Below are positions 1 to 15,226 of a stretch of 64,000 nucleotides of DNA, piece by piece. Every line of letters begins with the position of its first letter. Positions within the stretch are counted from its first letter, which is position 1. The notes beneath the pieces were generated by a model, which was not told the origin of the DNA, did no database searches, and saw nothing but the letters and a program-made list of their open reading frames with translations. The position numbers and the translations under genes were made by a program. Source of the DNA: Thermotogota bacterium (lineage in GTDB: Bacteria; Thermotogota; Thermotogae; Mesoaciditogales; Mesoaciditogaceae); NCBI GenBank assembly GCA_026988035.1, contig JALSLY010000069.1, positions 15,337 through 79,336 on the forward strand. Direction: 5' to 3'.

Positions 1-401
1 CAGATGATGACCTTACCGTTGGCTCTATGAACCCATACGAACTTTTCTTGATCTTTGTCGAGTTGAACAAGTTTTTTGATCTTTCAAAAACGCCACCAGA
101 AGTTGCGCTGGTCATTGACCAAAGCATGAACATAAAACCAAAGATAAAAGCTTTAATCCAATCTATTGAAAATCTCCAGATTACTTACTTGAAGTCTCTT
201 TTCGTTGATTTCAGTAGTTTGCAAGAGTGCCAAAAAGCAAACGATGTTATAGGAAGTGAGGAGATTTTAAAAGATGCTTTCCTCACAGATGTGAGGCCGA
301 TTTTGAAAGAATGGCGTTCCGATCTTGGGATCCCCCTTAATGCACTTGAAGCATTTGAAAAAAGCGGATACGAAGAAAAAATTGCTAAAGAGCGGGGTTG
401 A
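1..401 (+). CDS. L-rhamnose isomerase (xylose-isomerase-like TIM-barrel RhaI type), C-terminal fragment; 5' end lies outside the window
   Basis: The reading frame is open from base 3 (DDDLTVGSM...), so the ORF-track ATG at 27 is internal. The motifs IDQSMNIKPKI and ILKDAFLTDVRPILKEW, with the ending SGYEEKIAKERG, match my recollection of the C-terminus of Gram-positive/Streptomyces-type rhamnose isomerases. The neighbouring rhaB is consistent with this. Confidence 0.6.
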   Translation, partial: DDDLTVGSMNPYELFLIFVELNKFFDLSKTPPEVALVIDQSMNIKPKIKALIQSIENLQITYLKSLFVDFSSLQECQKANDVIGSEEILKDAFLTDVRPILKEWRSDLGIPLNALEAFEKSGYEEKIAKERG

Positions 402-535
402 TGATCGTTCAAAAAGGAAATAAAGAATTGATAAAAGTGCTTGTTTATAGATTTAGTTAACAGTAGGTGCTGACCAGATAAGGAAGAAGCGTTCTGGCTC
501 TTAGAATTAAATTCCCTTAAAAAAGAGGCAAAGTA

Positions 536-1867
536 ATGAGAAAATATGCTCCAAACTGGACATCTTTAAAAGAACATGACATTCCCAAATGGTATGACGA
601 CGCGAAATTTGGTATATTCATTCATTGGGGGCCTTATTCAGTTCCTGCGTGGGCACCAACTACTGGAGAACTTGGGAAAGTACCAAGAGAAGAATGGTTT
701 AAAAACAATCCTTATGCCGAATGGTATTTAAACTCTTTAAGGATAAATGGAAGCCCAACGTACAAGCATCATGTTGAAAAATATGGAGAGAATTTCGATT
801 ATTACAAATTCGTTGAAATGTGGAAAGCGGAAAAATGGGATCCCAAAGAATGGGCTGAACTCTTCAAAAAAGCAGGAGCAAAATATGTAATCCCAACCAC
901 AAAACATCACGATGGATTTTGCTTGTGGCCAAGCAAGTACACAGATTTTAGTGTGATGAACAAAGGTCCAAAAAGAGATCTGATCGGAGAACTATCAAAA
1001 GCCGTTAAGGCGGAAGGTCTGAAATTTGGAGTTTATTATTCGGGTGCACTCGATTGGAGATTCACGAAAACGCCTATAACGACTTCTGAAGATCTTGAAT
1101 TTGTGAGACCTCATACTTATGAATATTCCGATTACGTTTACAATCAATTCATGGAATTAATTGATAGCTACGATCCTGACATTTTGTGGAATGATATCGG
1201 TTGGCCCGAAAAGGGAAGAGAGGATCTTAAGTATCTTTTTGCGTATTTTTACAACAAGAACCCTAATGGATTGGTAAATGATAGATGGGATATGCCACAT
1301 TGGGATTTCAAAACCCCGGAGTATAAACAGAATTACCCAGAAGGTATCCCACATTACAAGTGGGAATTATGCAGGGGATTAGGATTTTCATTTGGTTATA
1401 ACCAAAACGAAGGTTACGAAGAAATTCTGAGTTCAGAAGAACTTATCCATCTGCTGGTAGAAGTTGTAAGTAAAGGTGGAAACCTTCTTTTAAATGTTGG
1501 CCCAAAAGCGGACGGAACTATTCCTAAAATTCAACAAGAGAGACTTCTCGCACTCGGTAAATGGCTTGAAGAGAATGGTGAAGTGATTTACGAAACACGA
1601 CCGTGGAAGGTAGATGAAGAGAAAACCCCACAAGGAAACGAGATAAGATTTACCATGGGCCAAAATGCGTTGTACATGTTTTTGTTCGATGTGGATCAAA
1701 GTGTTTTAACGATAAGATCGTTGAAGATGCCCAAAAATGCAAAAATCAGCACCTTAAAAGATGAAGGAATTGACTTCAAACAAAAGCGTGAGGGGATCGA
1801 GATTTTTTTGCCACCCAATTTAAAAGATACGATCATTGTCCTGAAGATTTCACCCATACCCCAATAA
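536..1867 (+). CDS. alpha-L-fucosidase, glycoside hydrolase family 29
   Basis: 443-aa ORF with an AAGAGG-like RBS upstream. GH29 hallmarks are present: FGIFIHWGPYSVPAW, KHHDGFCLWPS, DILWNDIGW and GGNLLLNVGPKADGTIP. Confidence 0.9.
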   Translation: MRKYAPNWTSLKEHDIPKWYDDAKFGIFIHWGPYSVPAWAPTTGELGKVPREEWFKNNPYAEWYLNSLRINGSPTYKHHVEKYGENFDYYKFVEMWKAEKWDPKEWAELFKKAGAKYVIPTTKHHDGFCLWPSKYTDFSVMNKGPKRDLIGELSKAVKAEGLKFGVYYSGALDWRFTKTPITTSEDLEFVRPHTYEYSDYVYNQFMELIDSYDPDILWNDIGWPEKGREDLKYLFAYFYNKNPNGLVNDRWDMPHWDFKTPEYKQNYPEGIPHYKWELCRGLGFSFGYNQNEGYEEILSSEELIHLLVEVVSKGGNLLLNVGPKADGTIPKIQQERLLALGKWLEENGEVIYETRPWKVDEEKTPQGNEIRFTMGQNALYMFLFDVDQSVLTIRSLKMPKNAKISTLKDEGIDFKQKREGIEIFLPPNLKDTIIVLKISPIPQ

Positions 1868-1888
1868 ATAATTGAAGGTGATAAATAA

Positions 1889-3364
1889 TTGAAAAGGTAT
1901 TTGTCTATAGATTTGGGTGCTACAAGTGGAAAATCCATTCTTGTTTCCTTTGATGGAAAGAAAATAGCGTTGGAAGAGATACACAGATTTTCAAATATGC
2001 CAGTGGAGTTAAATGGCTTTCTCTATTGGAATGTGCTGGATTTATACAATAACATCTTGGATTCAATAGAAATATCGCTGACAAAATATGGTGAACTTGC
2101 ATCTCTTGGAATAGATACGTGGGGAGTGGATTTCGGCCTTCTCGATTCAAAAGGATTTTTGCTGGCCAATCCTTTTCATTACAGAAACTCTTACAAAAGC
2201 CAAACGATGAAAAAAGTATTAAATTCTGTCGGAAAAGAATGGATATTTCAACGATGCCCCACCCAATTTCAACCGTTTAACACTTTGTACCAGTTGATAA
2301 CCCTTAAGGAAATGGATTTTGCTGCGCTTAAACTTGCTCACACGCTTTTGGGCATGCCGGCTTTGTTGACGTACTTTCTCACTGGTGAAAAATTCATAGA
2401 GTTCACATATGCCACAACTACTCAACTTTACAACCCTTACGTAAGAGATTGGGATAAAGAAATAATGGAAAAGTTTGATCTCCCAAATATCTTTCCAAAG
2501 CTCGTACGATCTTCGACGGAGATTGGCCAATTTAAAGCTCAGGAAAAGAGAAAAGAGATAAGTGTTGTAGCGGTTGCTTCTCATGACACAGCATCCGCAT
2601 TTGCCTCAACAATGGTGAGAAATGAAGAAACGATGATAATAAGCTCAGGGACATGGTTTTTGGAAGGAATCATTACCGATAAAGCTTACAAGAAACCTGA
2701 AATACTGAAATACAACTTTGCGAGCGAGGGATGTATCGATGGGAAATTCCGTTTGCTTTCTAACGTAACCGGTATGTGGCTGGTGGAGCAGCTTTTGAAA
2801 AAATGGAGAAAGAGCACTCCCACATTAAGTTATAGAGATATTACCGGAATGGCAAAAAGGACTGAAGCTTTCAAGGGATTCATAGATGTGGATTCAAAAA
2901 TTCTTCAAAACCCAACAGATATGGAGAGCGAAATTGTAAGAGAATGTAAAAACTTTTCTGGGAAACGGATTGAAAGTAGGGGAGAAATAGTTAGAACTAT
3001 TTTTGAAAGCATAGCGCTTAAAACCAGATGGGTTAAGGAAAAATTGGAGGAGATCACCGGTAAGGAGATAAAATCCATTCGGATGATAGGTGGAGTTACA
3101 AGAAACGACTTTATCTGTCAACTTATCTCAAATGCCACCTGTTTACCTCTAATGGCAGGACCAATAGAAGGGACAGCTGTTGGAAATGCAATAAGTCAGA
3201 TTATGGCAAAAGAAGGCATAGAATTGAGCGATTTGGAAGAAATCGTAAAACGTTCTTTCGAATTCAAGAATTACGTTCCTCAGGACAGGGAAAAATGGGA
3301 TAAATCTTATGAAAGATACAAAGAACTCCTTGAAGAAAGGGGAGAAAAGGATGAACAGTGTTGA
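1889..3364 (+). CDS. rhaB: rhamnulokinase (FGGY carbohydrate kinase)
   Basis: TTG start. The motifs [56 protein letters not shown] and MIGGVTRN align along the whole length with my recollection of E. coli RhaB. Confidence 0.85.
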
Positions 3365-5168
3365 AGGTATGAGAATTACCAAGCCACGAATCATTGGAAA
3401 ATTACCGAAAATAGGGATACGTCCGACTATCGATGGTCGTAAAGAAGTAAGGACTCCTCTTGAAAAGCAAACCAAGGCCATGGCAGAAGCAACCGCCAAA
3501 TTTTTAAGTGAGAATCTAAAACATTCAAACGGGATGCCAGTTGAATGTGTTGTTTCGGATACTATAAGCAACGCTGCAGAAGCTGCAAAGGCAGAAGAGA
3601 ATTTTCAAGAGAAAGGAGTAGGTGTATCAATAACGGTAACTCCCACATGGTGTTATGGTGCAGAGACAATGGATATGGAACCATTCAGACCAAAGGCTAT
3701 CTGGGGATTCAACGGCACAGAACGGCCTGGTGCGGTTTATTTGGCCGCCACGCTTGCTGCTCATAATCAAAAAGGGTTGCCAGCATTTGGAATATACGGA
3801 AAAGACGTACAGGATGCTGGGGCCACTTCAATACCTGAAGATGTCCAAGAAAAATTGTTGCGTTTTTCAAAAGCGGCTCTGGCTGTCGCTACAATGAGAG
3901 GAAAATCTTATCTTGCGATGGGTGGAGTATCAATGGGAATCGCCGGTTCCATTGTGGATCCTGATTTTCTTGAAGACTACTTGGGAATGAGATATGAAAT
4001 GGTTGATATGTCTGAATTTATACGAAGAATGGAAGAAGAGATATATGACAAAGAAGAATACGAAAAGGCATTAAGCTGGACGAGAGAAAATTGTATAGAA
4101 GGACCCGACGATAATCCACCTCAGAGACGGTTAAGCAGAGAGAAAAAGGACAAAATTTGGGAAATAGTCGTGAAGATGACTTTAATTGCTCGCGATCTCA
4201 TGATAGGAAATCCCAAGTTAGCTGAAATGAATTTTGAAGAAGAATCTATGGGACATAATGCAATTGTAGCTGGTTTTCAGGGCCAACGTCAATGGACGGA
4301 CCATTTTCCCAACGGAGACTTCTTGGAAACCTTTCTCAACACTTCATTTGATTGGAATGGCATTCGAGAGCCATTCATAATTGCCACAGAAAATGACAGT
4401 TTGAATGGAATAACGATGTTGTTTTCTCATCTTTTAACAGCGAGAGCACAAATTTTTGCTGATGTAAGAACTTATTGGAGTCCGGAAGCCGTGAAACGGG
4501 TAGCCGGTAAAAAATTAGAAGGATTGGCTGAAAATGGGATCATCCATTTAATAAATTCCGGTTCAGCCACACTTGATGGAACTGGTGAGCAGACTGACAA
4601 AAATGGCAATCCAGTTATGAAGCCATATTGGGAAATAACACCAAAAGAAGTCAAAAAAACTCTTAAGGCCACTTTATGGAGACCAGCGCTTTTGGAATCT
4701 TTCAGAGGTGGAGGATTTTCTGTCGATTTTTTAACCAAAGGTGGAATGCCAGTAACGATGGCAAGACTGAACATAATAAAAGGCATTGGTCCCGTTCTGC
4801 AAATAGCTGAGGGGTATACGGCGAGTCTTCCCAAGGAAATACATGACATACTTGACAAACGGACAAATCCAACATGGCCAACAACGTGGTTTGCACTCCG
4901 TCTGACAGGTAAGGGGTCATTCAAAGATGTTTATTCCGTAATGAACAATTGGGGAGCTAACCATGGAGCAATAAGTTATGGACATATAGGAGCGGACTTG
5001 ATAACTCTTGCCTCGATGTTGAGAATTCCTGTGGCCATGCACAATGTTTCTGAAGAAAATATATTCAGGCCAAGTGCATGGGGAGCATTTGGGACGTCTG
5101 ATTTAGAAAGTGCTGATTACAGAGCGTGCGCCAACTTTGGCCCTTTGTACGGAAAAAACAAAAGATGA
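3351..5168 (+). CDS. fucI: L-fucose isomerase
   Basis: The protein is essentially collinear with E. coli FucI ([81 protein letters not shown]). I prefer the ATG at 3351 because GGAGAAAAGG sits just upstream. The track ORF start at 3309 would add 14 residues with no counterpart in FucI. Confidence 0.95.
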
Positions 5169-5183
5169 AGAAGGAAGATAAGT

Positions 5184-5603
5184 ATGCTCAAGGGCATCGA
5201 CAGTGCGTTATCACCAGAGTTACTTAAGGTAATAGATGAAATGGGACATGGTGAAGAAATTCTTCTGGCAGATGCAAATTATCCTGTCAATTCGATGAAT
5301 CTTCCAGTTATAAGGGCGGATGGTATTGATATTCCAAGACTAATGAAGGCAATTTTAAAACTTATGCCACTTGATACGTTCGCAGAATACAACATCATCT
5401 TGATGAATTCAAACGGGGAAGAACCTGAAATATGGAAAGAATATCGCAAGATTCTTGAAAATTCCGGTGAAGAGTTCAGAATAAAAAGTGTAAGTAGATT
5501 CGACTTTTATAAGATGGGTGCAAAAGTTTCCGCCGTTGTAGCCACCGGTGAAAAGGCACTTTACGCCAACATCATATTGAAAAAAGGCGTTATAAGCGAT
5601 TAA
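5184..5603 (+). CDS. fucU: L-fucose mutarotase (RbsD/FucU family)
   Basis: 139 aa. MLKGIDSALSPELLKVIDEMGHGEEILLADANYP ... YANIILKKGV closely parallels E. coli FucU. Confidence 0.9.
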   Translation: MLKGIDSALSPELLKVIDEMGHGEEILLADANYPVNSMNLPVIRADGIDIPRLMKAILKLMPLDTFAEYNIILMNSNGEEPEIWKEYRKILENSGEEFRIKSVSRFDFYKMGAKVSAVVATGEKALYANIILKKGVISD

Positions 5604-5622
5604 AAGAAAGGAGAGATCTAAA

Positions 5623-7068
5623 ATGAAACGATATCAGCTCTTTATCAATGGAGAATTCGTTGATTCTTCTTCCAGAGAAACGTTTAAAGTCATAAACCCT
5701 GCTACTGAGGAGGAAATTTCGGAAGTGCCACAAGGAACTGTTGAAGATACGCGCGCCGCGATCAATGCCGCGTATGAAGCTCAGAAAAGTTGGGCAAAGT
5801 TGCCAGCAATCGAACGTGCAAAATATTTGAGAAAAATTGCAGATGGAATACGCAAAAATGCAGATATGTTTGTTACCACTCTTGTTGAGGAGCAAGGAAA
5901 AACAAAACCCTTGGCACGAATTGAAGTTGATTTCACCGCGGATTACATCGACTACATGGCTGAATGGGCAAGACGAATCGAAGGAGAGATAATTCAAAGT
6001 GATAGACCAAACGAGAATATACTGCTTTACAAGATGCCAATAGGGGTCGTTGCAGGAATATTACCATGGAATTTTCCATTCTTTTTGATTGCGAGAAAGA
6101 TGGCTCCTGCACTTATAACTGGAAATGCGGTTGTGATAAAACCAAGTTCTGACACACCAAACAACGCTTTTGAATTTGCAAAGATCGTGGCGGAATCCAA
6201 TCTTCCCAAAGGTGTCTTCAACTTGATTAGTGGTAAGGGTTCTGTTGTAGGAAATGAACTATCGGTTAATCCTAAAGTAGATATGGTGAGTTTCACAGGT
6301 AGTGTTGAAGCTGGAACAAAGATCATGGAAGCCGCCGCGAAGACTGTTAAAAAAATCTCGCTTGAACTTGGGGGTAAAGCTCCTGCAATCGTAATGGATG
6401 ATGCAGACATAGATTTGGCTGTTAAATCTATAAGAGATTCAAGAATACCAAACACGGGTCAAATTTGTAACTGCGCCGAGAGAGTATACGTTCACGAAAA
6501 AATAGCAGACGAGTTCATAGCCAAAATGACCGAGGCTATGAAAAGCAGCACATACGGTGATCCGATGAATGAAAATGTGGACATGGGACCACTTATAAAC
6601 TCAAATGCTTTGGAATCCGTGGATGGTATGGTTAAACGTGCAGTAAATGAAGGTGCCACCTTAGTGACCGGAGGGAGAGATAAGGAACGAGAAAGAGGTT
6701 TCTTTTACAAACCCACTGTGTTGATAAATTGCAAACAAGAAATGGAGATCATGCACAAAGAAATATTTGGTCCAGTCTTACCGATCATGAAATTCAAAGA
6801 TTTGGACGAAGCGATAGAGCTTGCGAATGATTGCGAATACGGACTTACATCTTCAATATACACACAAAATTTAGATGTGGCGATGAGAGCGGCAAATGAA
6901 ATAAAATTTGGAGAGACTTACGTTAACAGGGAAAATTTTGAAGCAATGCAAGGATTCCATGCTGGCTGGCGGAAATCGGGAATAGGTGGTGATGACGGCA
7001 AGCATGGTATAGAAGAGTTTATGAACACACATGTAGTCTATATTCAGTACGATCGAGGAAAGAAGTAA
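5623..7068 (+). CDS. aldA: NAD-dependent lactaldehyde dehydrogenase (aldehyde dehydrogenase family)
   Basis: 481 aa. Long near-identical stretches to E. coli AldA as I recall it: FTADYIDYMAEWARR.EGEIIQSDRP.ENILL, GILPWNFPFFLIARKMAPAL, ELGGKAPAIVMDDAD, QICNCAERVYV, YGLTSSIYTQNL.VAM and FGETY.NRENFEAMQGFHAGWRKSGIGG.DGKHG. Confidence 0.9.
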   Translation: MKRYQLFINGEFVDSSSRETFKVINPATEEEISEVPQGTVEDTRAAINAAYEAQKSWAKLPAIERAKYLRKIADGIRKNADMFVTTLVEEQGKTKPLARIEVDFTADYIDYMAEWARRIEGEIIQSDRPNENILLYKMPIGVVAGILPWNFPFFLIARKMAPALITGNAVVIKPSSDTPNNAFEFAKIVAESNLPKGVFNLISGKGSVVGNELSVNPKVDMVSFTGSVEAGTKIMEAAAKTVKKISLELGGKAPAIVMDDADIDLAVKSIRDSRIPNTGQICNCAERVYVHEKIADEFIAKMTEAMKSSTYGDPMNENVDMGPLINSNALESVDGMVKRAVNEGATLVTGGRDKERERGFFYKPTVLINCKQEMEIMHKEIFGPVLPIMKFKDLDEAIELANDCEYGLTSSIYTQNLDVAMRAANEIKFGETYVNRENFEAMQGFHAGWRKSGIGGDDGKHGIEEFMNTHVVYIQYDRGKK

Positions 7069-7070
7069 GA

Positions 7071-8357
7071 GTGAAAATAAAACTGAGATATGGCAAAGGC
7101 CACGAAACGATCGAAATCCCAGCAGAAAAAGTTCAAGTATTAAAAAAACGCGATGTTAGCCCTATAGAAGATATCGAAGATAAGATTCGAGGAGCGCTTT
7201 TGAATCCAATTGGGATCCCTCCTCTTTTTGAAATAGCCAAAGGCAAAAGAGATAGTTGTATACTTGTTTCTGACACCACTCGGCCAGTACCGAATGGTGT
7301 CATACTTCCTCCAATTATAAGTACATTGAAACAGGCAGGGATCAGCCCGAATAAAATAACAGTTCTAATAGCTACAGGTACTCACGATGTTGTACCAGAT
7401 GAGCTTTTAGAAGAATTACTTGGAAAAGAAGTGCTGCTAAGTGGCGTAAAGATCATCAGTCACAATGCCTATGATGATTCCACATTAGTAAATCTTGGAG
7501 TTGGTGCACATAATTGTCCTGCAATTTTAAACAAGTTGTACGTTCAGTCAGAGTTGAAAATATGTACAGGCTTGATCGAACCGCACTTTATGGCAGGATA
7601 TTCTGGTGGTAGAAAGTCAATATGCCCGGGAATAGTGGGCATTGAAACTCTAAAAGTTTTTCACGGGGTAGCTGCAATGGGTCATCCTCTTTCAAAAAGC
7701 TGCTCTTTGGAAGGTAATCCTGTACAAGAAATAGCTGAAAGTGTCGCGAAAATTGTTGGATGCGACTTTATGGTAAATGTGACGTTGAATGATAAAAGGG
7801 AGATCACGGGGATATTTGCAGGCGATATCTTCAAAGCGCACCGTGTGGGATGTGACTTCGTGGGAGAGAATTCTATAGTCGAGATAGACAGTCCAGCTGA
7901 TATAGTGGTGACATCCAATGGGGGATATCCTTTAGACCAAAATTATTACCAAACTGTAAAAGGCTTGGTTGAAGCTTCTGAAATTTTAAGGCCGAATGGT
8001 GTTATAGTAATGGCGTCTGAGTGCAAATACGGGCTTGGCAAAGATGATTTTAAGAATCTCTTGAAAGAGTTGCGAGAAAAAACGATTGAACAGTTCTTAA
8101 AAGGACACAGTACTTCAGAAGGTTTTAGAAGTGACCAATGGGAAGTTCAAAAACTCACGCAAGTACTGGAAAAAACAAGAAATATTTTTTTGCTGTCTGG
8201 GCTGAGTGATGAAGAATATTCCTTTACATTCAGCCGGAAGGTTCATTCACTTAACGAAGGTTTGAGAAAAGCAATACAAATTGTTGGAAGAAATGCGAAT
8301 ATTGTTGTTATTCCAGAAGGACCTTACATTGTTGGAAGGATCAAAACAAGTACCTGA
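7071..8357 (+). CDS. LarA-like nickel-pincer-cofactor-dependent 2-hydroxyacid (lactate) racemase/epimerase family protein
   Basis: GTG start, 428 aa. The motif EPHFMAGYSGGRKSICPGIVGIETLKVFH gives an H-x9-K-x15-H spacing. This equals the His174/Lys184/His200 spacing of Lactobacillus plantarum LarA as I recall it. An upstream ATGTH motif is also present. Confidence 0.75.
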   Translation: MKIKLRYGKGHETIEIPAEKVQVLKKRDVSPIEDIEDKIRGALLNPIGIPPLFEIAKGKRDSCILVSDTTRPVPNGVILPPIISTLKQAGISPNKITVLIATGTHDVVPDELLEELLGKEVLLSGVKIISHNAYDDSTLVNLGVGAHNCPAILNKLYVQSELKICTGLIEPHFMAGYSGGRKSICPGIVGIETLKVFHGVAAMGHPLSKSCSLEGNPVQEIAESVAKIVGCDFMVNVTLNDKREITGIFAGDIFKAHRVGCDFVGENSIVEIDSPADIVVTSNGGYPLDQNYYQTVKGLVEASEILRPNGVIVMASECKYGLGKDDFKNLLKELREKTIEQFLKGHSTSEGFRSDQWEVQKLTQVLEKTRNIFLLSGLSDEEYSFTFSRKVHSLNEGLRKAIQIVGRNANIVVIPEGPYIVGRIKTST

Positions 8358-8397
8358 TCAAAGAAGTGCCCAAATCATTTTGCTTGGGATGAGAAAT

Positions 8398-9390
8398 ATG
8401 GAAATTTACCAGTTTATGAAGAAAATTGAAGAAGTTCTTGGAGACAGAAGAATGTGCAAATATGGCCTAAGGCTTGAAGAATTTGGTGGACGTTTAGTTT
8501 TAATAGGAATGGTGGATACTTTGGAGTCTCTGAAGCGCGTGAATGATGTTGTCTCAACGATTTCTGAGAATATAGAGATCACGGTTCGCACACTTGAAGA
8601 AAAGGTTCCTAAATTAGCTAAGTGGGCTGTGTGTATTTCAACAGTTTGTGATGTCAGACGAGAGGCAAAATTCAGATCAGAAAGAGTTCACCAGTTAATT
8701 TTTGGAGAATGTGCAAAAACGTTGAGTTTTGAAAATGAGTATGTACTGATAAAAGATCTTCGCACTTCTTTTGTTGGATGGGTAAAGGCGTCTCAACTTA
8801 TCTTCACAGATGAGGCTTCTATTCGTGTATGGAAAGCATCTGGAGACGAAGTGATCGTGGATAAAAGATTCTCCAAGTCTGATCTCGACGGGAATATTTT
8901 GTACTTATCATTCGGAACCAAAATTCCAGCTGTTGAGAAAGGAAACTTTTGGGAGTCCGTTTTTCCAAATGGACGTATATTGAAAATACCAAAGCGGGAT
9001 GCTTCTTACGTTGGTGAAAAAAAATTTGAGGATTTAAAAAATATTTGGAGCGATTTTTTAGGGACTCCATATTTGTGGGGAGGAGCCAGCGCTTATGGAT
9101 ACGATTGCTCTGGTTATGTTGGTCGTCTCTACGATTACATTGGTGTAAAAATCCCAAGAGATGCAGATCTTCAAAAAGATGCCGCAATGAAAATAAAAGA
9201 AACTGAATTGAGGTTTGGAGATCTCGTTTTCTTTCCTGGACATGTGGCTTTGTATATTGGAAATGGGGAAATAGTGCATTCAAATCTCACTCAAGGTGGT
9301 GTTGGGAGATCTCGGCTTTTTTCTCCAATGAACTCCTATGAAAAATGGCTCAAAGAGCACGTGACAAAATTTGGAAGGGTGGTCAGATGA
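8398..9390 (+). CDS. NlpC/P60 (C40) cell-wall peptidase with an N-terminal SH3b-like region
   Basis: The C-terminus GTPYLWGGASAYGYDCSGYVGRLY ... GDLVFFPGHVALYIGNGEIVHS is the canonical NlpC/P60 Cys/His core. The start is uncertain: ATG at 8389 or 8398. The track start at 8281 would overlap the larA-like gene by 77 nt. The stop overlaps the etfB start (ATGA). Confidence 0.8.
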   Translation: MEIYQFMKKIEEVLGDRRMCKYGLRLEEFGGRLVLIGMVDTLESLKRVNDVVSTISENIEITVRTLEEKVPKLAKWAVCISTVCDVRREAKFRSERVHQLIFGECAKTLSFENEYVLIKDLRTSFVGWVKASQLIFTDEASIRVWKASGDEVIVDKRFSKSDLDGNILYLSFGTKIPAVEKGNFWESVFPNGRILKIPKRDASYVGEKKFEDLKNIWSDFLGTPYLWGGASAYGYDCSGYVGRLYDYIGVKIPRDADLQKDAAMKIKETELRFGDLVFFPGHVALYIGNGEIVHSNLTQGGVGRSRLFSPMNSYEKWLKEHVTKFGRVVR

Positions 9391-10178
9391 AGATAGCAGT
9401 TCTGGTAAAAGAAGTCCCGGCGACGGATAAAGTGAAAATGGATGAGAAAACCGGAACGATGATCAGAAGCGAAATGGAGTCCGAGCTGAATCCACTTGAT
9501 ATGTACGCGATCGAAGAAGCAGTCCGTGTAAAAGAGAAGATTGGAAATACGCACGTTATTGCGATCTCAATGGGTCCTCCACAGGCAATCAATTCTATAA
9601 GAGAAGCTATACCCATGGGATGTGATTATGGGTATCTCATGTCTGATAAATATTTTGCTGGGGCTGACACACTTGCTACGGCTTATACACTTTCAGCTGC
9701 AATCCGAAAACTTGGGAAGTTTGATCTCATATTCTCGGGAGAACGCGCTACAGACGGCGAAACCGGACAAGTTGGTCCTTCAGTGGCGACTCAACTTGGC
9801 ATGCCGGTTGTGACGTACGTAAGCAAAGTGGAAAAGATTAGCGATGGTATTGTTCGTGTTTGCCGTTCCGTTGAAGGTGGCAAAGAGACCGTCGAAGTAG
9901 AACTCCCGGCGCTTTTAAGTGTTGTGAAAGAGATAAACGAACCACGGATCCCAAATTTATCCGGGAAAATTGCATCCAAATCAAAAGAGATTCCCCTTCT
10001 GACTGCGAAGGATATAAAAGTATCTTCAGACAAAGTGGGACTTTCTGGTTCTCCAACGAGAGTGGTGAAAGTTTTTTATCCAAAACTCTCAAGAGATGGA
10101 AAAATTTTGAAAGTCAAAAATGTCGAATCAGCTGTAAACGAACTTATAAAATTTATGAAAGAAAGAGGAGTAATCTAA
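9387..10178 (+). CDS. etfB: electron transfer flavoprotein, beta subunit
   Basis: MKIAVLVKEVP...LNPLDMYAIEEA...ERATDGETGQVGP is typical of EtfB. I prefer the ATG at 9387, which follows GGTGG. The upstream extension in the track has no EtfB counterpart. Confidence 0.85.
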   Translation: MKIAVLVKEVPATDKVKMDEKTGTMIRSEMESELNPLDMYAIEEAVRVKEKIGNTHVIAISMGPPQAINSIREAIPMGCDYGYLMSDKYFAGADTLATAYTLSAAIRKLGKFDLIFSGERATDGETGQVGPSVATQLGMPVVTYVSKVEKISDGIVRVCRSVEGGKETVEVELPALLSVVKEINEPRIPNLSGKIASKSKEIPLLTAKDIKVSSDKVGLSGSPTRVVKVFYPKLSRDGKILKVKNVESAVNELIKFMKERGVI

Positions 10179-11192
10179 ATGTTGCCAAATGAGTGCAAAG
10201 GGATCTGGACCATTGGAGAGGTTAGAAATGGTGAAATAAATCCCGTTTCTTATGAACTTTTGGCCTGGGGAAGAAAACTCGCAGACAAGCTGGAAATTGA
10301 ATTGTCGAGCATCATACTTGGTAATGGCATTAAGGAGGAATTGACTGAACTCTTCCACTTTGGAGCAGACGTCGTTTACGCTGTTGACCATGCAAAGCTA
10401 GAACACTTCTTGCCAGATGTGCACGCAAGAATTTACGAAGCGCTTGTAAAAGAATACAAGCCAGAGATCATAATAGCATCCGCCACTACGTATGGAAGAA
10501 CGGTCATGCCAATATTGGCAGCAAAGCTTGGTACCGGTCTTACAGCAGATTGTACGGAACTTGATGTGGATGTAAGAGAACGTATCTTGCTTCAAACAAG
10601 GCCTGCAATTGGAGGAAACGTGATGGCTACAATAAAGACTCCTGCCCATAGACCTCAAATGTCAACAGTTAGGCCACGGGCTAAAAAACCTTTAACGATT
10701 GACAATTCAAGGAATGGGAAGATTATCCTGAAGAGTTATCCACCGGAGTTCTACAAATCAAAATATCGTTGGATATCTTTTGAAAAAGATGAAAGTGTAG
10801 CTTCACCTATCCAAGAATCTGACGTTATTGTTGCTGGTGGCAAGGGAATGAAAGATGGAGGAAATTTTAAGATGCTCTACGATCTTGCCAAAAAGCTAAA
10901 TGGTGCTGTTGGGGCCTCTCGAGCTGCCGTGGATATGGGATGGATTCCGTACTCACACCAAGTTGGACTTTCAGGAAAAACTTTGAGTCCAAGGTTTTAC
11001 ATGGCTGTTGGTATTTCCGGAGCAGTTCAACACATCGCTGGTATGTCATCATCGGAAGTCGTGGTGGCGATAAACAAAGATCCAGATGCAGCCATATTCA
11101 AAGTATCAGATTTCGGTATTGTTGGTGACGCATTAGAAATACTCCCTGTACTCATTAAAAAACTTTCGAATGAGGTGAATGAGAATGGCTGA
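10179..11192 (+). CDS. etfA: electron transfer flavoprotein, alpha subunit
   Basis: 337 aa. The C-terminal FAD-binding motifs VAGGKG, GASRAAVDMGW, QVGLSGKTLSP.FYMAVGISGAVQH..G and VVAINKDPDA are present. It sits immediately after etfB. Confidence 0.85.
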   Translation: MLPNECKGIWTIGEVRNGEINPVSYELLAWGRKLADKLEIELSSIILGNGIKEELTELFHFGADVVYAVDHAKLEHFLPDVHARIYEALVKEYKPEIIIASATTYGRTVMPILAAKLGTGLTADCTELDVDVRERILLQTRPAIGGNVMATIKTPAHRPQMSTVRPRAKKPLTIDNSRNGKIILKSYPPEFYKSKYRWISFEKDESVASPIQESDVIVAGGKGMKDGGNFKMLYDLAKKLNGAVGASRAAVDMGWIPYSHQVGLSGKTLSPRFYMAVGISGAVQHIAGMSSSEVVVAINKDPDAAIFKVSDFGIVGDALEILPVLIKKLSNEVNENG

Positions 11193-12600
11193 ATTTGCCA
11201 AGATCACTTCGAGAGTCATCGCAGAATTTGAGAAAATTCTCGGAAATAATGGTGTGATATTTAACGACAAGGACACTCTTGAAAACTATGCACATGACGA
11301 AACTGGTGGAGAATACTATTCGCACATGCCGGATGTTGTTTTGAAACCCGAAAATACGGAACAGATCTCCAAGATTCTAAAAATTGCGAATGCAGAATGC
11401 ATACCAATAACACCACGTGGAGCTGGAAGCGGACTTGCAGGAGCCTCTGTTCCCATCTTTGGCGGAGTTGTCATCTCATTCGAAAAAATGAACAAAATTC
11501 TCGAAGTTGACAAAACAAACCTTGTAGCAGTCGCTGAACCTGGGGTTGTGACAAACGATCTCTGCCGAAAAGTGTCTGAACTTGGACTTTATTACGCTGG
11601 ATATCCGATGAGTGTGGAAACGAGCTTTATAGGAGGAAATGTTGCGACAAATGCGGGAGGGAGCAAAGTTATAAAGTATGGCAACACGGCTCATCATGTG
11701 CTTGGAATGGAAGCTGTCCTTCCCGATGGAGAGATCGTGCAATTTGGTGGAAAGCGTAGAAAAGATTCGAGCGGGTATGATATCACGCGTTTGATGGTTG
11801 GTTCCGAAGGGACCCTTGCGGTCTTCACGAAAATCTTTCTTAACCTCATACCACTTCCCGGTAAGACCGTGGATTTGCTTGCGCCTTTTGGGGATATTTA
11901 TACAGCCATTTCAAACGTTGGTCCGTTAATTGCAGAAAGCAAAACACTCCCAAGTGCGGTAGAGTTTATAGATAACACCTCTGTGATTCTTGGCTCAAAG
12001 TACAACAACATAACCCTTCCCTTTCAAGAAAAGGCAGGCGCGTATCTTATTATCCAATACGAAGGACGCGACAAGGCGGAACTTGAGAGTATATACGAAA
12101 AAGCCGGCAAAGCTTTGATAGATGGAAAGGCTATGGATGTTTTCGTGGCAGATAACAGAACCAATTCAGAAAAGATATGGAGAATACGAAGAAATTGGCT
12201 TGAGGGGATAAAAGCATTTGAGCCCCACACGCCTACAGGAGATGTTGTTGTTCCAACGTCTGAAATACCACAAATTATGGAATGCATCTCTGAAATATCG
12301 AAAGAGTATAAGGTTCAAATCCCAGTTGCTGGCCATGCCGCTGATGGTAACCTTCATCCTGCTCCCATGAAACCAAAAAGTATGGAACTGGAAGATTGGA
12401 AGAACCTTTCGGAAGAGATTTTATCCAAAATAGCCATAAAAGCCGCACAAATGGGAGGCGCGGTGAGTGGAGAGCATGGAATAGGATTCGTAAAAAAAGA
12501 GCTTCTTAAGAAGACTAAAAGCAAACAATATGAGATCATGAAATCTTTGAAAGATGCCATAGATCCCAATGGAATCATGAATCCTGGGAAATTGTTTTGA
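11185..12600 (+). CDS. FAD-binding oxidoreductase of the GlcD / D-lactate dehydrogenase family (LctD-like)
   Basis: About 471 aa. It has the FAD_binding_4-type motifs PRGAGSGLAGASVP, VEPGVVTNDL, YPMS....IGGNVATNAGG and GTLAVFTKI, and the C-terminal GGAVSGEHGIG..K and DPNGIMNPGK. GAGGTG sits 7 nt before the ATG at 11185; the ATG at 11179 is an alternative. Confidence 0.8.
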   Translation: MAEFAKITSRVIAEFEKILGNNGVIFNDKDTLENYAHDETGGEYYSHMPDVVLKPENTEQISKILKIANAECIPITPRGAGSGLAGASVPIFGGVVISFEKMNKILEVDKTNLVAVAEPGVVTNDLCRKVSELGLYYAGYPMSVETSFIGGNVATNAGGSKVIKYGNTAHHVLGMEAVLPDGEIVQFGGKRRKDSSGYDITRLMVGSEGTLAVFTKIFLNLIPLPGKTVDLLAPFGDIYTAISNVGPLIAESKTLPSAVEFIDNTSVILGSKYNNITLPFQEKAGAYLIIQYEGRDKAELESIYEKAGKALIDGKAMDVFVADNRTNSEKIWRIRRNWLEGIKAFEPHTPTGDVVVPTSEIPQIMECISEISKEYKVQIPVAGHAADGNLHPAPMKPKSMELEDWKNLSEEILSKIAIKAAQMGGAVSGEHGIGFVKKELLKKTKSKQYEIMKSLKDAIDPNGIMNPGKLF

Positions 12601-12760
12601 AAGTTGGCTCAACTTTTATACCAAAACGCTTTCAAGATTCCAAGGATAATACTAAAATGTGTTTGTTGAACATTAGCAAAAGCGCTAAACTAATTTGTAA
12701 AAGAAACAGCTAACGATACTAATTGAATGAATTTATGATATTTGAGAAAGGGTGAATGTC

Positions 12761-13741
12761 ATGTTTGATTTTATGAATGAAAAGTTGAGTCTCGGCCGTT
12801 TCCCAACTCCCATTGAACCCATGAAATATGGTGAAAAATATGGAGTGAATTTGTTTGTAAAGCGTGATGACCTTGATGAATTTATAGGCTCTGGAAACAA
12901 AGTAAGAAAGTTAGAATATCTTTTGTACGATGCCAAGAAACTTTCTTGCGATGTTGTTTTAAGTGCTGGAGGCGTGCAGTCAAATCATTGTAGAGCCACG
13001 GCGTACTTTTCAAAAAAATTGGGTATGGATGTTGAGCTCTTTCTCTTTGGTGAAAGCGAATTGCAAGGCAACTTCTTGATAGACAAGCTTCTTGGGGCGA
13101 AAATCCACTCCATTACTTATGAAGAATACGAAAACGTTGCCGAGATTATGAACAAAAGAGCAACGGAATTAGAATCGACAGGACGCAGAGCTTACGTTAT
13201 TCCTCCTGGTGGATCTAGTGCGGTGGGATTTCTCGGATATGCAGCAGCTGTACACGAAATTTCAAATTGGGAAAAAGCGCATGGCAAATTTGATTATATT
13301 GTGTGTGCTACAGGAACGGCTGGAACGATCGCAGGGCTTGAAATAGGAAGGCTACTTTATAATGAGGAATTCAAAGTAATTGGTGTGAACGTTACAAAAA
13401 GATCACAGGAAGATTTTCATAAAATCATGTCAGAAGAATTGGTTGCCTTCAACGCGAAATACAAAACGGAGATAAAAGAACTAAATCCGATAGTGGTAGA
13501 TGGTTATGTGGGTGAGGGATACGCAATCCCCTCGCAAGAAGACTTTGAAATCATACGAGATGTAGCATCAAAAGATCAGTTGATATTCGATCCAGTATAC
13601 ACGGCAAAAGCCTTTAAAGGTATTATATCAATGATCAAGAAGAGCGAAATACCTCAAAACTCCCGAATACTTTTTATCCACACTGGTGGGACATTTGGAC
13701 TTTTCGCATTTGCAAATCAGTTGGAAAATTTCCTAATATGA
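12761..13741 (+). CDS. PLP-dependent D-cysteine desulfhydrase / ACC-deaminase family protein
   Basis: FPTPIEPM, KRDDL...GSGNKVRKLEYLL (PLP lysine motif), SAGGVQSNHCRATA and IHTGG. I prefer the ATG at 12761 (AAAGGGTGA RBS); the GTG at 12752 is an alternative. Confidence 0.8.
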   Translation: MFDFMNEKLSLGRFPTPIEPMKYGEKYGVNLFVKRDDLDEFIGSGNKVRKLEYLLYDAKKLSCDVVLSAGGVQSNHCRATAYFSKKLGMDVELFLFGESELQGNFLIDKLLGAKIHSITYEEYENVAEIMNKRATELESTGRRAYVIPPGGSSAVGFLGYAAAVHEISNWEKAHGKFDYIVCATGTAGTIAGLEIGRLLYNEEFKVIGVNVTKRSQEDFHKIMSEELVAFNAKYKTEIKELNPIVVDGYVGEGYAIPSQEDFEIIRDVASKDQLIFDPVYTAKAFKGIISMIKKSEIPQNSRILFIHTGGTFGLFAFANQLENFLI

Positions 13742-13852
13742 TCATGATAATTGTGGTTTTGTGTACTTAATTCTAAAATATCGTGTTTTTTACAAAGGCT
13801 CAGTTCCACTTTTCTTCATTTTGAAAAGTTCCACTCATTATGAATGACTCAG

Positions 13853-14515
13853 ATTGTGCAACGAACATTACAAGGCGCGAAGGCGCTGGCGGTAGCCGAG
13901 TGGGATTGTGCGGTGAGTGGAGTTGCCTGTGGCAACATCTTTTCCACTTCCCCGACCAAAGCGGCAGCTGCGACCAATGTTTTCCCACTTTCATGTCTGA
14001 GGCGGTAGCCGAGTGAGGGACCATCGAAGATAGTGGGTGGTGTGATTTGTTAAAGATTACACACCCCGGCCTTCGGCCACCCCTCTTGATAGAGGGGATT
14101 AAAAGCAAAAGTAGTCCTTCCTTGAGGAGCAGGATTGCACAGTGAGTGGAGTTGCCTGTGGCAACATCTTTTCCACTTCCGCAACCAAAGCGGTAGTTGC
14201 GACCAATGTTCTCCTGCTTTCATGTCCGAGGCGGTAGCCAAGTGGGATTGTGCGGTGCACAATGTTTTCCCACTTCCATGTCCGAGGCGGTAGCCGAATG
14301 GGGGACCGCGTAGCGGTGGAAGGTAGTCCTTCCTTGAGGAAGGTGGCGGCGAAGCCGACGGAAGGTGTTAGTATGCAGCGTGCCTCACGATGTGAACTGG
14401 AAGATGGATAAGCGAGTGAATCGGGCTTGATAAGACTTCGAAAAAAAATCCTTTATCGCTTGAAAAGCGATGTTTATTTGATAAATACTCATAGGTTGTA
14501 AAGTTGACGCACAAC
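13853..14515 (+). repeat. dispersed non-coding MITE-like element, copy A (longest; a diverged right arm may extend to about 14550)
   Basis: The left end AGATTGTGCAACGAACATTACAAGG and right end GATAAATACTCATAGGTTGTAAAGTTGACGCACAAC are shared with the loci at 31880-32010 and 50933-51369. The interior is G+C-rich with duplicated ~120-nt modules. Confidence 0.7.
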
Positions 14516-14596
14516 TTAAATAAATGAGTTTTCAGAGAACGTGAGTGCGCCTAATGTGTGATAATAAAAGGAAATTGCTGTACGGGAGGAGTATTG

Positions 14597-15226
14597 GTGC
14601 CAAGAATAGAACCTTTTGAAAATCATTTTTTGGAATATGAAAATTGGTTTGAAAAAAACAAATTTGTCTATAAATCGGAACTTTCAGCAGTAAGGTTTTT
14701 GCTACCCAAAAGTGAGGAAGGATTGGAAATCGGTGTTGGAAGCGGCCGGTTTGCTGCCCCTCTTGGGATCAAATTGGGAGTAGAACCATCTCAAAAAATG
14801 GCCAGAATAGCAATTAAAAACGGAATTAAAGTGATTAAAGGAGTGGCAGAAGAACTTCCCTTTTATGATGAACAGTTTGATTTTGCTTTGATGGTAACAA
14901 CGATCTGTTTTGTAGACGATGTTCGGAAAGCGTTCGAAGAAGCTTATAGAATATTGAAGCAACATGGTGTGATCATAGTTGGATTTGTTGACAAAGAAAG
15001 TATAGTTGGAAGAGAATACGAAGCTCATAAATCAGAGAGCATTTTCTACAAAACCGCCACATTTTACTCGACAAACAGAGTCGTTTCTATTTTAAAGGAA
15101 GTTGGATTTAAAAACTTTCACTTTGTTCAAACCGTTTTTCATTCTCTAAATGAAGTGAAAGATGTTGAAGAAATCAGGAATGGGTATGGGAAAGGTTCAT
15201 TTGTGGTGATAAGAGCAAAAAAATGA
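14597..15226 (+). CDS. class I SAM-dependent methyltransferase
   Basis: Motif I-like LEIGVGSGRFA and a post-I/II region (FDFALMVTTICFVDD, LKQHGVIIVG). The start is placed at the GTG at 14597, 5 nt after GGGAGGAG; the TTG at 14594 and the track start at 14558 are alternatives. Confidence 0.7.
   Translation: MPRIEPFENHFLEYENWFEKNKFVYKSELSAVRFLLPKSEEGLEIGVGSGRFAAPLGIKLGVEPSQKMARIAIKNGIKVIKGVAEELPFYDEQFDFALMVTTICFVDDVRKAFEEAYRILKQHGVIIVGFVDKESIVGREYEAHKSESIFYKTATFYSTNRVVSILKEVGFKNFHFVQTVFHSLNEVKDVEEIRNGYGKGSFVVIRAKK

Follow-up and report, generated by a model that had tools for sequence, protein, structure and literature searches.

A predicted oxidative route from L-lactaldehyde to pyruvate in a deoxy-hexose gene cluster of a Thermotogota bacterium

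In textbook accounts of the anaerobic fermentation of rhamnose and fucose the C3 half of the sugar is discarded as 1,2-propanediol. Why, then, does a deoxy-hexose gene cluster of an anaerobic bacterium run on into genes for a lactaldehyde dehydrogenase (AldA), a LarA-type racemase, the two subunits of an electron transfer flavoprotein (Etf) and a flavin-dependent lactate dehydrogenase-like protein? The genes lie in a stretch of 64,000 nucleotides (hereafter ‘the window’), which is part of contig JALSLY010000069.1 (C69) of a Thermotogota bacterium (assembly GCA_026988035.1) whose genome of 2.04 Mb in 86 contigs is 97.6% complete. The answer that we consider probable is that these genes, by predicted function, oxidise L-lactaldehyde derived from deoxy-hexoses to pyruvate via AldA, a LarA racemase and an Etf-coupled D-lactate dehydrogenase. 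An anaerobic route of this kind had been proposed in a sequence-only reading of the window, and it is supported as a prediction by the presence of larEBC in the genome, by the Etf motifs, by the likeness of the dehydrogenase to LctD and by conserved synteny; the accompanying notion of a ‘hard-wired’ route was too strong, and the conserved partner of the module is the rhamnose cluster. Three of the refuting conditions named in that reading (no NPN-cofactor genes, a non-bifurcating Etf, a dehydrogenase for another 2-hydroxyacid) were examined at the level of sequence, and none of them spoke against the route.

The genes at the heart of the proposal are the following:

5623-7068, + strand: aldA, NAD-dependent lactaldehyde/glycolaldehyde dehydrogenase (AldA equivalog NF007497, 831 bits against a cut-off of 500)
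7071-8357, + strand: larA, LarA-family nickel-pincer nucleotide (NPN) 2-hydroxyacid racemase of LarAH2/SAR type, predicted lactate racemase (Lar_N and LarA_C domains)
8398-9390, + strand: NlpC/P60 peptidase gene (330 aa) between larA and etfB, its stop overlapping the etfB start
9387-10178, + strand: etfB, bifurcating-type small Etf subunit (motifs DGETGQVGP for the b-FAD, KYFAG for the NAD site, and SPT)
10179-11192, + strand: etfA, bifurcating-type large Etf subunit without ferredoxin domain (R141 aligned with LctC R205, D124 with D189)
11179-12600, + strand: lctD-like gene for an FAD-dependent (GlcD/VAO-family) predicted D-lactate dehydrogenase (best solved relative Acetobacterium woodii LctD, 330 bits)

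All of the genes that the sequence-only reading had named, fucI and fucU followed by aldA, the LarA-like gene, etfB, etfA and the GlcD-family dehydrogenase, are found on the same strand, but its list left out the NlpC/P60 gene between larA and etfB. From fucI onwards the co-directional genes are tightly packed with gaps of 15, 19, 2 and about 40 nt, the NlpC/P60 gene and etfB share a 4-nt ATGA overlap, etfB and etfA abut, and etfA overlaps lctD by 14 nt. The NlpC/P60 gene was considered as part of the conserved module and rejected, as it is absent from every orthologous cluster.

Immediately after aldA, whose orthologues of 76-90% identity adjoin larA in relatives too, comes the putative racemase. 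Both of its domains are matched over their full length (PF09861, 181 bits; PF21113, 114 bits), and the best match among solved structures, again spanning the full length, is LarA_Ip (9EID, 328 bits), the LarAH2/SAR enzyme of Isosphaera pallida, ahead of the Thermoanaerobacterium lactate racemase (246 bits), Lactiplantibacillus plantarum LarA (222 bits) and the malate racemase Mar2 (212 bits). The H-x9-K-x15-H spacing of cofactor and catalytic residues, already pointed out in the sequence-only reading, is intact (H172, K182 and H198), and it is accompanied by the carboxylate-binding Arg (R71), by H105, which is catalytic together with H172, and by Y293-Q294-x-x-K297. The NPN-tethering Lys K182 and the nickel-ligand His H198 (K183 and H199 in LarA_Ip) are kept in 16 of 16 aligned orthologues; indeed all contacts of LarA_Ip to D-lactate, NPN and nickel are kept in the window protein and in 16 aligned Thermotogota homologues, with the single exception of L174, which is replaced by Phe. 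The resulting HFM in place of the HLM of LarA_Ip resembles the HFF of lactate-specific LarAs (2YJG alignment), and the exchange may narrow the substrate range. The protein appears to be a LarA-superfamily racemase of the broad-spectrum LarAH2/SAR type; given its gene context and the kinetics of LarA_Ip, which accepts 14 2-hydroxyacids with the highest kcat/Km for L-lactate (Km 0.15 mM; PMC11851776), we infer that it racemises lactate. A malate racemase identity was rejected because the protein matches the LarAH5 and LarAH6 models less well, with scores far under their cut-offs.

The window contains none of larB, larC and larE, as had been remarked from the sequence alone, and the search of the whole genome that this called for located larE, larB and larC together at C31:51861-54544, all of them over their family cut-offs. 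The LarA of the window is the sole LarA homologue in the genome, and therefore an NPN pathway exists for it.

Bifurcating Etfs are recognised by a b-FAD motif DGDTAQVGP that is missing in their non-bifurcating counterparts, an NAD site RxFxG, an SPT anchor and an EtfA Arg on the N5 of the b-FAD (PMC9232219). The window EtfB carries DGETGQVGP at 123-131, which is kept in nearly all 15 aligned orthologues (one of them ending in S for P), and the SPT anchor at 222-224, whilst R141 of EtfA aligns with the b-FAD N5 contact R205 of LctC. For both subunits the five best solved relatives are all bifurcating, namely CarDE, the Acidaminococcus Etf, Thermotoga maritima EtfAB, the Clostridioides difficile Etf and LctBC: EtfA scores 216-296 bits against these and at most 163 against non-bifurcating Etfs, EtfB 175-215 bits and at most 97, respectively. 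By its motifs and its nearest solved relatives the Etf is classified as being of the bifurcating type. It is predicted to be the dedicated partner of the LctD-like protein, the gene for which directly follows etfB-etfA, a trio kept in every sampled locus. The possibility that it serves as the general Etf of the genome was rejected on account of a second locus of EtfABCX/FixABCX type (EtfB-EtfA-FixC-FixX, L141:6837-10310) on another contig, C55; that set directly follows a c-type cytochrome biogenesis CcsB-like gene.

The dehydrogenase has the FAD_binding_4 plus FAD-oxidase_C fold, and its solved relatives are D-2-hydroxyacid enzymes, led over the full length by A. woodii LctD (7QH2_C) with glycolate oxidase next at 250 bits. 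In A. woodii LctD the functional sites are Arg328, the metal ligands His377, His384 and Glu422, and the catalytic His423 (PMC9232219); their equivalents, R337 for the carboxylate, the ligands H386, H393 and E432, and the catalytic H433, are all kept. The resemblance of EtfBA, GlcD-like protein and racemase to the A. woodii Lct gene set, first suggested by gene order, is thus borne out by the best solved relative and the Etf motifs. An identity as GlcDEF-type glycolate oxidase was rejected, since neither glcE nor glcF lies beside the gene, since it is linked to Etf genes and since LctD leads the solved relatives of its product; the glcD model TIGR00387 is the best NCBIfam match, but with a score far under cut-off.

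The strongest argument that these enzymes act together comes from their neighbours in other genomes. We surveyed 151 Thermotogota species genomes, fetched up to 20 kb around LarA homologues and placed the window proteins by tblastn; related genomes are not independent samples, and the counts illustrate a pattern and carry no statistical test. A LarA homologue of some kind occurs in 57 of the 151, an orthologue at 59-75% identity in 17 and a relative at 42-46% in five more. Wherever this LarA type (42-75% identity) had at least 8 kb of context, rhaA, a rhaB kinase or an aldolase was found within 10 kb (16/16 loci), and etfB-etfA-lctD accompany larA in 15 of the 16, a second stretch of the same contig being needed for genome G032. 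The link between larA and rhamnose genes takes four gene orders in at least five families: (a) rhaA-kinase-larA-aldA-etfB-etfA-lctD (family f1, genus g2); (b) the order of the window; (c) in family f7, a DeoR gene followed by aldolase-rhaA-GH78 rhamnosidase-larA-etfB-etfA-lctD-kinase, where aldA before larA is present or not and larA is embedded between rhaA/GH78 and rhaB; and (d) in genomes G133 and G054, etfB-etfA-lctD, then aldehyde:ferredoxin oxidoreductase (AOR)-aldolase-larA, then aldolase, rhaA or a transporter. In the last of these orders a tungsten-type AOR (PF01314 and PF02730; L136:6493-8292 and L135:7473-9287) takes the place of AldA in two distant Thermotogota lineages, in what appears to be a non-orthologous displacement at the step from lactaldehyde to lactate. 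One or other of these aldehyde-oxidising enzymes is found in the same cluster in most of the rhamnose-larA loci; an AldA orthologue was not found in genomes G080, G081 and G082. A linkage that survives both rearrangement and the replacement of an enzyme is hard to explain unless, as we predict, the genes share one pathway. The LarAH2 homologues of Planctomycetota and Armatimonadota, about 40% identical, share almost no neighbours with the window when its proteins are placed by tblastn.

Loci that lack the racemase suggest why it is there at all. Homologues of LctD are found in 89 of the 151 genomes, far more widely than this LarA type, and in 11 sampled loci without that type no rhamnose genes lie near the etfB-etfA-lctD trio. 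In two unrelated families (genomes G092 and G010) the trio instead adjoins murQ, in G092 also nagZ; the MurQ proteins are above their equivalog cut-offs, and this N-acetylmuramic acid (MurNAc)-6-phosphate etherase releases D-lactate from the cell-wall sugar. These murQ-linked trios support D-lactate as the predicted substrate of the dehydrogenase. They likewise support a putative rule whereby the trio suffices where D-lactate is supplied and the racemase is added where the source is L-lactate from L-lactaldehyde. Elsewhere, genome G067 has an SH3b-NlpC/P60 gene, 25% identical to that of the window over the catalytic part, together with lysA downstream of etfB-etfA-lctD, and G033 has a lysA-like gene after lctD. 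Taken together, NlpC/P60, lysA, murQ and nagZ as neighbours suggest that the Etf-coupled lactate dehydrogenase is linked to the recycling of peptidoglycan, in which D-lactate is set free from MurNAc.

What would feed the module at the present locus is the remainder of the gene string, of which the following rows lie in the window:

1-401, + strand: 3' end of rhaA, an L-rhamnose isomerase-like TIM-barrel gene (AP_endonuc_2) starting at C69:14577; orthologues flank the module in relatives
536-1867, + strand: GH29 alpha-L-fucosidase (PF01120, 371 bits)
1889-3364, + strand: FGGY sugar kinase, rhamnulokinase-like (TIGR02627, 369 bits, cut-off of 528 not reached); orthologues adjoin larA or lctD in relatives
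3369-5168, + strand: fucI, L-fucose isomerase (NF008220, 1068 bits against a cut-off of 775); the frame is open from 3309, with ATG 3369 as the likely start
5184-5603, + strand: fucU, RbsD/FucU-family mutarotase (PF05025; NF011949, 124 bits, cut-off of 141 not reached)

Further upstream on C69 lie a divergent DeoR-family regulator and then, on the + strand, a class II aldolase of the FucA/RhaD superfamily (L140:8800-9522), an ASRT-family gene, a sugar-type ABC transporter (ATPase, two permeases and binding protein) and rhaA. The whole co-directional string measures about 19 kb and begins about 6.5 kb upstream of the window, and the genes tabulated above form its tail; it appears to encode all steps of phosphorylative deoxy-hexose breakdown, with a single kinase and a single aldolase. 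From this arrangement we infer co-transcription, the locus forming the far end of a single long operon for deoxy-hexoses. A scan of positions 1-14600 for promoter and terminator consensus sequences returned sites no more frequently than in shuffled sequence, and the only regulator at the locus is the DeoR-type protein at the head of the cluster. The fucosidase, fucI and fucU (536-5603) sit within a rhamnose operon that has a single RhaB-like kinase and a single class II aldolase, which presumably serve rhamnose and fucose alike. Since fucI is rare (9 of the 151 genomes) and neither fucI nor fucU occurs in any orthologous cluster taken from relatives, the fucose genes look like an add-on in this genus, and the conserved partner of the lactate module would be the rhamnose cluster. 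Two further genes of the neighbourhood may be recorded here. The ASRT (Anabaena-sensory-rhodopsin-transducer) family gene (117 aa, L140:9578-9931), between the aldolase and the ABC transporter, has no NCBIfam match, and 151 nt past lctD lies a gene for a pyridoxal phosphate-dependent protein of the D-cysteine desulfhydrase/ACC deaminase family (12752-13741), which is not beside the module in any relative.

The pathway that we propose would start with the isomerisation, phosphorylation and cleavage of rhamnose or fucose to dihydroxyacetone phosphate and L-lactaldehyde. AldA would convert L-lactaldehyde and NAD+ to L-lactate and NADH, the NPN-dependent LarAH2-type racemase would interconvert L- and D-lactate, and a complex of the LctD-like protein with EtfAB would oxidise D-lactate to pyruvate. 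By analogy with A. woodii LctBCD the last step would be confurcating, with ferredoxin (Fd) as second electron donor: D-lactate + 2 NAD+ + 2 Fd(red) -> pyruvate + 2 NADH + 2 Fd(ox). Confurcating lactate oxidation is reaction 22 in PMC5861303, near +6 kJ/mol. Pyruvate:ferredoxin oxidoreductase would then return reduced ferredoxin, and the formation of acetate by acetate kinase would yield one extra ATP. Both of these enzymes belong to the general metabolic equipment of Thermotogota. The predicted net yield per lactaldehyde is acetate, CO2, 3 NADH and 1 ATP, compared to propanediol formation, which would give no ATP and use one NADH. The surplus NADH would have to leave as H2 or to an external acceptor, and therefore low H2 or an external electron sink should favour the branch; under other conditions lactaldehyde may go to a FucO-like enzyme. 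Where AOR replaces AldA, aldehyde oxidation itself would supply the reduced ferredoxin consumed by the confurcating lactate step.

A number of observations weigh against this account, in whole or in part. The racemase does not reach the cut-off of the NCBI lactate-racemase equivalog (NF033504, 396 bits against 460), and its closest characterised relative, LarA_Ip, is broad-spectrum. The NAD motif of EtfB reads KYFAG, with K in place of the R of RxFxG that most orthologues have. In A. woodii removal of the ferredoxin domain of EtfA abolishes confurcation (PMC9232219). The EtfA of the window (337 aa) is without this domain, just as had been read from its sequence. Bcd-type bifurcating Etfs likewise lack it. 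In the pocket of the dehydrogenase two positions are changed (E344 to T and Y386 to A, in the numbering of A. woodii LctD), and the absent ferredoxin domain and these two residues leave confurcation and substrate as predictions. It is also awkward for a fermenter that the route would yield 3 NADH per lactaldehyde but no reduced ferredoxin on balance. [FeFe]-hydrogenase genes and RnfC are present in the genome.

The distribution of the cofactor genes is a further difficulty. Whereas 57 of the 151 genomes have LarA homologues, larB, larC and larE are found together in just 22-23, and none of the three was found in seven near-complete genomes (G032, G064, G080, G081, G082, G084 and G085) that keep the rhamnose-linked LarA with all NPN, nickel and catalytic residues intact (loci among L121 and L129-L136), nor in the AOR-variant genomes G054, G132 and G133. 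In the papers examined, discussion of such a mismatch deals with the reverse case, larBCE without larA. The lineage of the window has complete larBCE, so its pathway stands.

Two enzymes encoded elsewhere in the genome also count against an exclusive role of the oxidative branch: an NAD-dependent L-lactate dehydrogenase, and a FucO-like iron-containing alcohol dehydrogenase at C24:9234-10385 (lactaldehyde reductase model TIGR02638, 487 bits against a cut-off of 523), the latter a candidate enzyme for reducing lactaldehyde in place of its oxidation. The cell therefore has options besides the oxidative branch, and to call that branch hard-wired was too strong. The gene for the FucO-like protein adjoins [FeFe]-hydrogenase-like genes (C24:4331-5041 and 8002-8688).

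How else might the arrangement be read? The larA-etfBA-lctD genes could form a general module for lactate or other 2-hydroxyacids, whether imported or produced by the L-lactate dehydrogenase, that merely adjoins sugar genes. The breadth of LctD homologues (89 of 151 genomes), the many trios that stand alone, the NAD-dependent L-lactate dehydrogenase as an internal source of L-lactate and the growth of A. woodii on lactate with the same gene set (PMC5861303) would all accord with it. Against it, this LarA type adjoins rhamnose genes wherever the context is long enough to tell, in four orders, and is embedded amongst them in family f7. AldA or AOR shares the cluster in most loci, the LctP-family lactate permease (PF02652) has no match in the 97.6%-complete genome, and apart from the DeoR protein at its head the cluster encodes no regulator. 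We regard a general module as unlikely.

Even less probable, in our judgement, is that the complex works as a bifurcating enzyme, 2 NADH + pyruvate + Fd(ox) -> D-lactate + 2 NAD+ + Fd(red), disposing of NADH from AldA and glycolysis and passing reduced ferredoxin to hydrogenase while LarA equilibrates the lactate pool. In vitro the A. woodii enzyme also works in reverse, with measured NADH:pyruvate:Fd activity (PMC9232219), the oxidative route leaves an NADH surplus and hydrogenases are present. This reversal would however leave unexplained both the strict association of the racemase with an L-lactate-producing step and the AOR variant, which already yields reduced ferredoxin; the murQ-linked trios point to the consumption of D-lactate, and lactate formation is already covered by the NAD-dependent L-lactate dehydrogenase.

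We think just as poorly of the chances that racemase and dehydrogenase act on another 2-hydroxyacid (2-hydroxybutyrate, glycerate or 2,4-dihydroxybutyrate) or on glycolate from the oxidation of glycolaldehyde by AldA. The 14 substrates of LarA_Ip (PMC11851776), the sub-threshold equivalog score of LarA, the two altered positions in the LctD pocket and the glcD model as best, if weak, NCBIfam match speak in favour; but glycolate is achiral and needs no racemase, L-lactaldehyde is the only aldehyde from the encoded rhamnose/fucose pathway, L-lactate is the best substrate of LarA_Ip, the Phe that replaces L174 is reminiscent of the HFF in lactate-specific LarAs, and glcE and glcF are not adjacent. 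A further point in favour is that AldA of E. coli acts on glycolaldehyde as well.

The oxidation of sugar-derived L-lactaldehyde to pyruvate thus remains our preferred reading, and if it is true it has several consequences. The cell would gain one ATP more per sugar, and products would shift to acetate, CO2 and H2 and away from propanediol; sugar fermentation would be tied to the supply of nickel and to the removal of H2 by partner organisms. The LarAH2 class of nickel-pincer racemases would acquire its first physiological role, the uses of Etf-coupled lactate dehydrogenases would widen beyond lactate-grown acetogens and butyrate producers, and it would become clear why the racemase travels with sugar genes and the Etf-coupled dehydrogenase occurs alone on D-lactate from cell-wall recycling. 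A broader proposition strikes us as evenly balanced: that Thermotogota, and perhaps other anaerobic phyla, have an undescribed oxidative branch of deoxy-hexose catabolism via AldA or AOR, an NPN racemase and a confurcating D-lactate dehydrogenase, in which AOR supplies the reduced ferredoxin that the lactate step consumes and LarAH2 enzymes find their role, the trio alone serving cell-wall D-lactate. Cultured Thermotogota with the cluster would allow the prediction to be tested directly.

How does the locus compare to known systems? Among the closest is A. woodii Lct, which has the same enzyme set of EtfB, EtfA, a GlcD/VAO-family FAD lactate dehydrogenase and a LarA-family racemase, and whose operon includes the racemase LctF, the permease LctE and the GntR-type regulator LctA. 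The systems differ in that the A. woodii EtfA has a [4Fe-4S] ferredoxin domain and the EtfA described here has none, and in that permease and GntR regulator have no counterpart here, there being no PF02652 protein in the genome and only a DeoR regulator at the locus. The racemase is of LarAH2 type, unlike that of A. woodii; the genes are placed in a sugar operon and would be fed by internal L-lactate from AldA, whereas A. woodii draws on external lactate; and A. woodii is an acetogen, the present organism a thermophilic fermenter. With LarA_Ip the racemase has in common the Arg, both catalytic His, the Lys tether, the nickel-ligand His and the Tyr-Gln-x-x-Lys, and it departs from it in the pocket exchange of L174 to Phe. 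The LarA-superfamily papers that we examined do not assign LarA_Ip a physiological role or sugar-operon context, nor do they mention rhamnose, fucose, aldehyde dehydrogenase or flavoprotein contexts.

On the side of the sugars, FucI, FucU, the class II aldolase and AldA are homologous to proteins of the E. coli fuc and rha systems. In E. coli the AldA branch is aerobic and propanediol is made anaerobically (PMC3870299), whereas here AldA belongs to the operon of a strict anaerobe and stands beside the means to oxidise its product. The regulon description for T. maritima gives rhaMADBC without these genes. The same logic, from rhamnose through L-lactaldehyde and L-lactate to pyruvate and with a rhamnose regulon that takes in the genes for lactate oxidation, is found in Actinomycetales and Rhodobacterales, whose rhamnose regulons are extended by L-lactate dehydrogenases (RhaEW with LldD or LldEFG; Rodionova et al. 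2013, PMC3870299). The enzymes of these aerobes are respiratory and oxidise L-lactate with neither racemase nor Etf, in contrast to the anaerobic NPN racemase and Etf-coupled D-lactate dehydrogenase predicted here. A literature search, with most subscription journals outside its scope, did not find lactate racemase combined with lactaldehyde dehydrogenase or with rhamnose and lactaldehyde. Already known, then, are A. woodii LctBCD with its racemase, LarAH2/SAR as an enzyme and the extension of rhamnose regulons to pyruvate in aerobes; what appears to be new is the prediction that a known lactate-oxidising module and a LarAH2-type racemase have been recruited into the deoxy-sugar operons of anaerobes.

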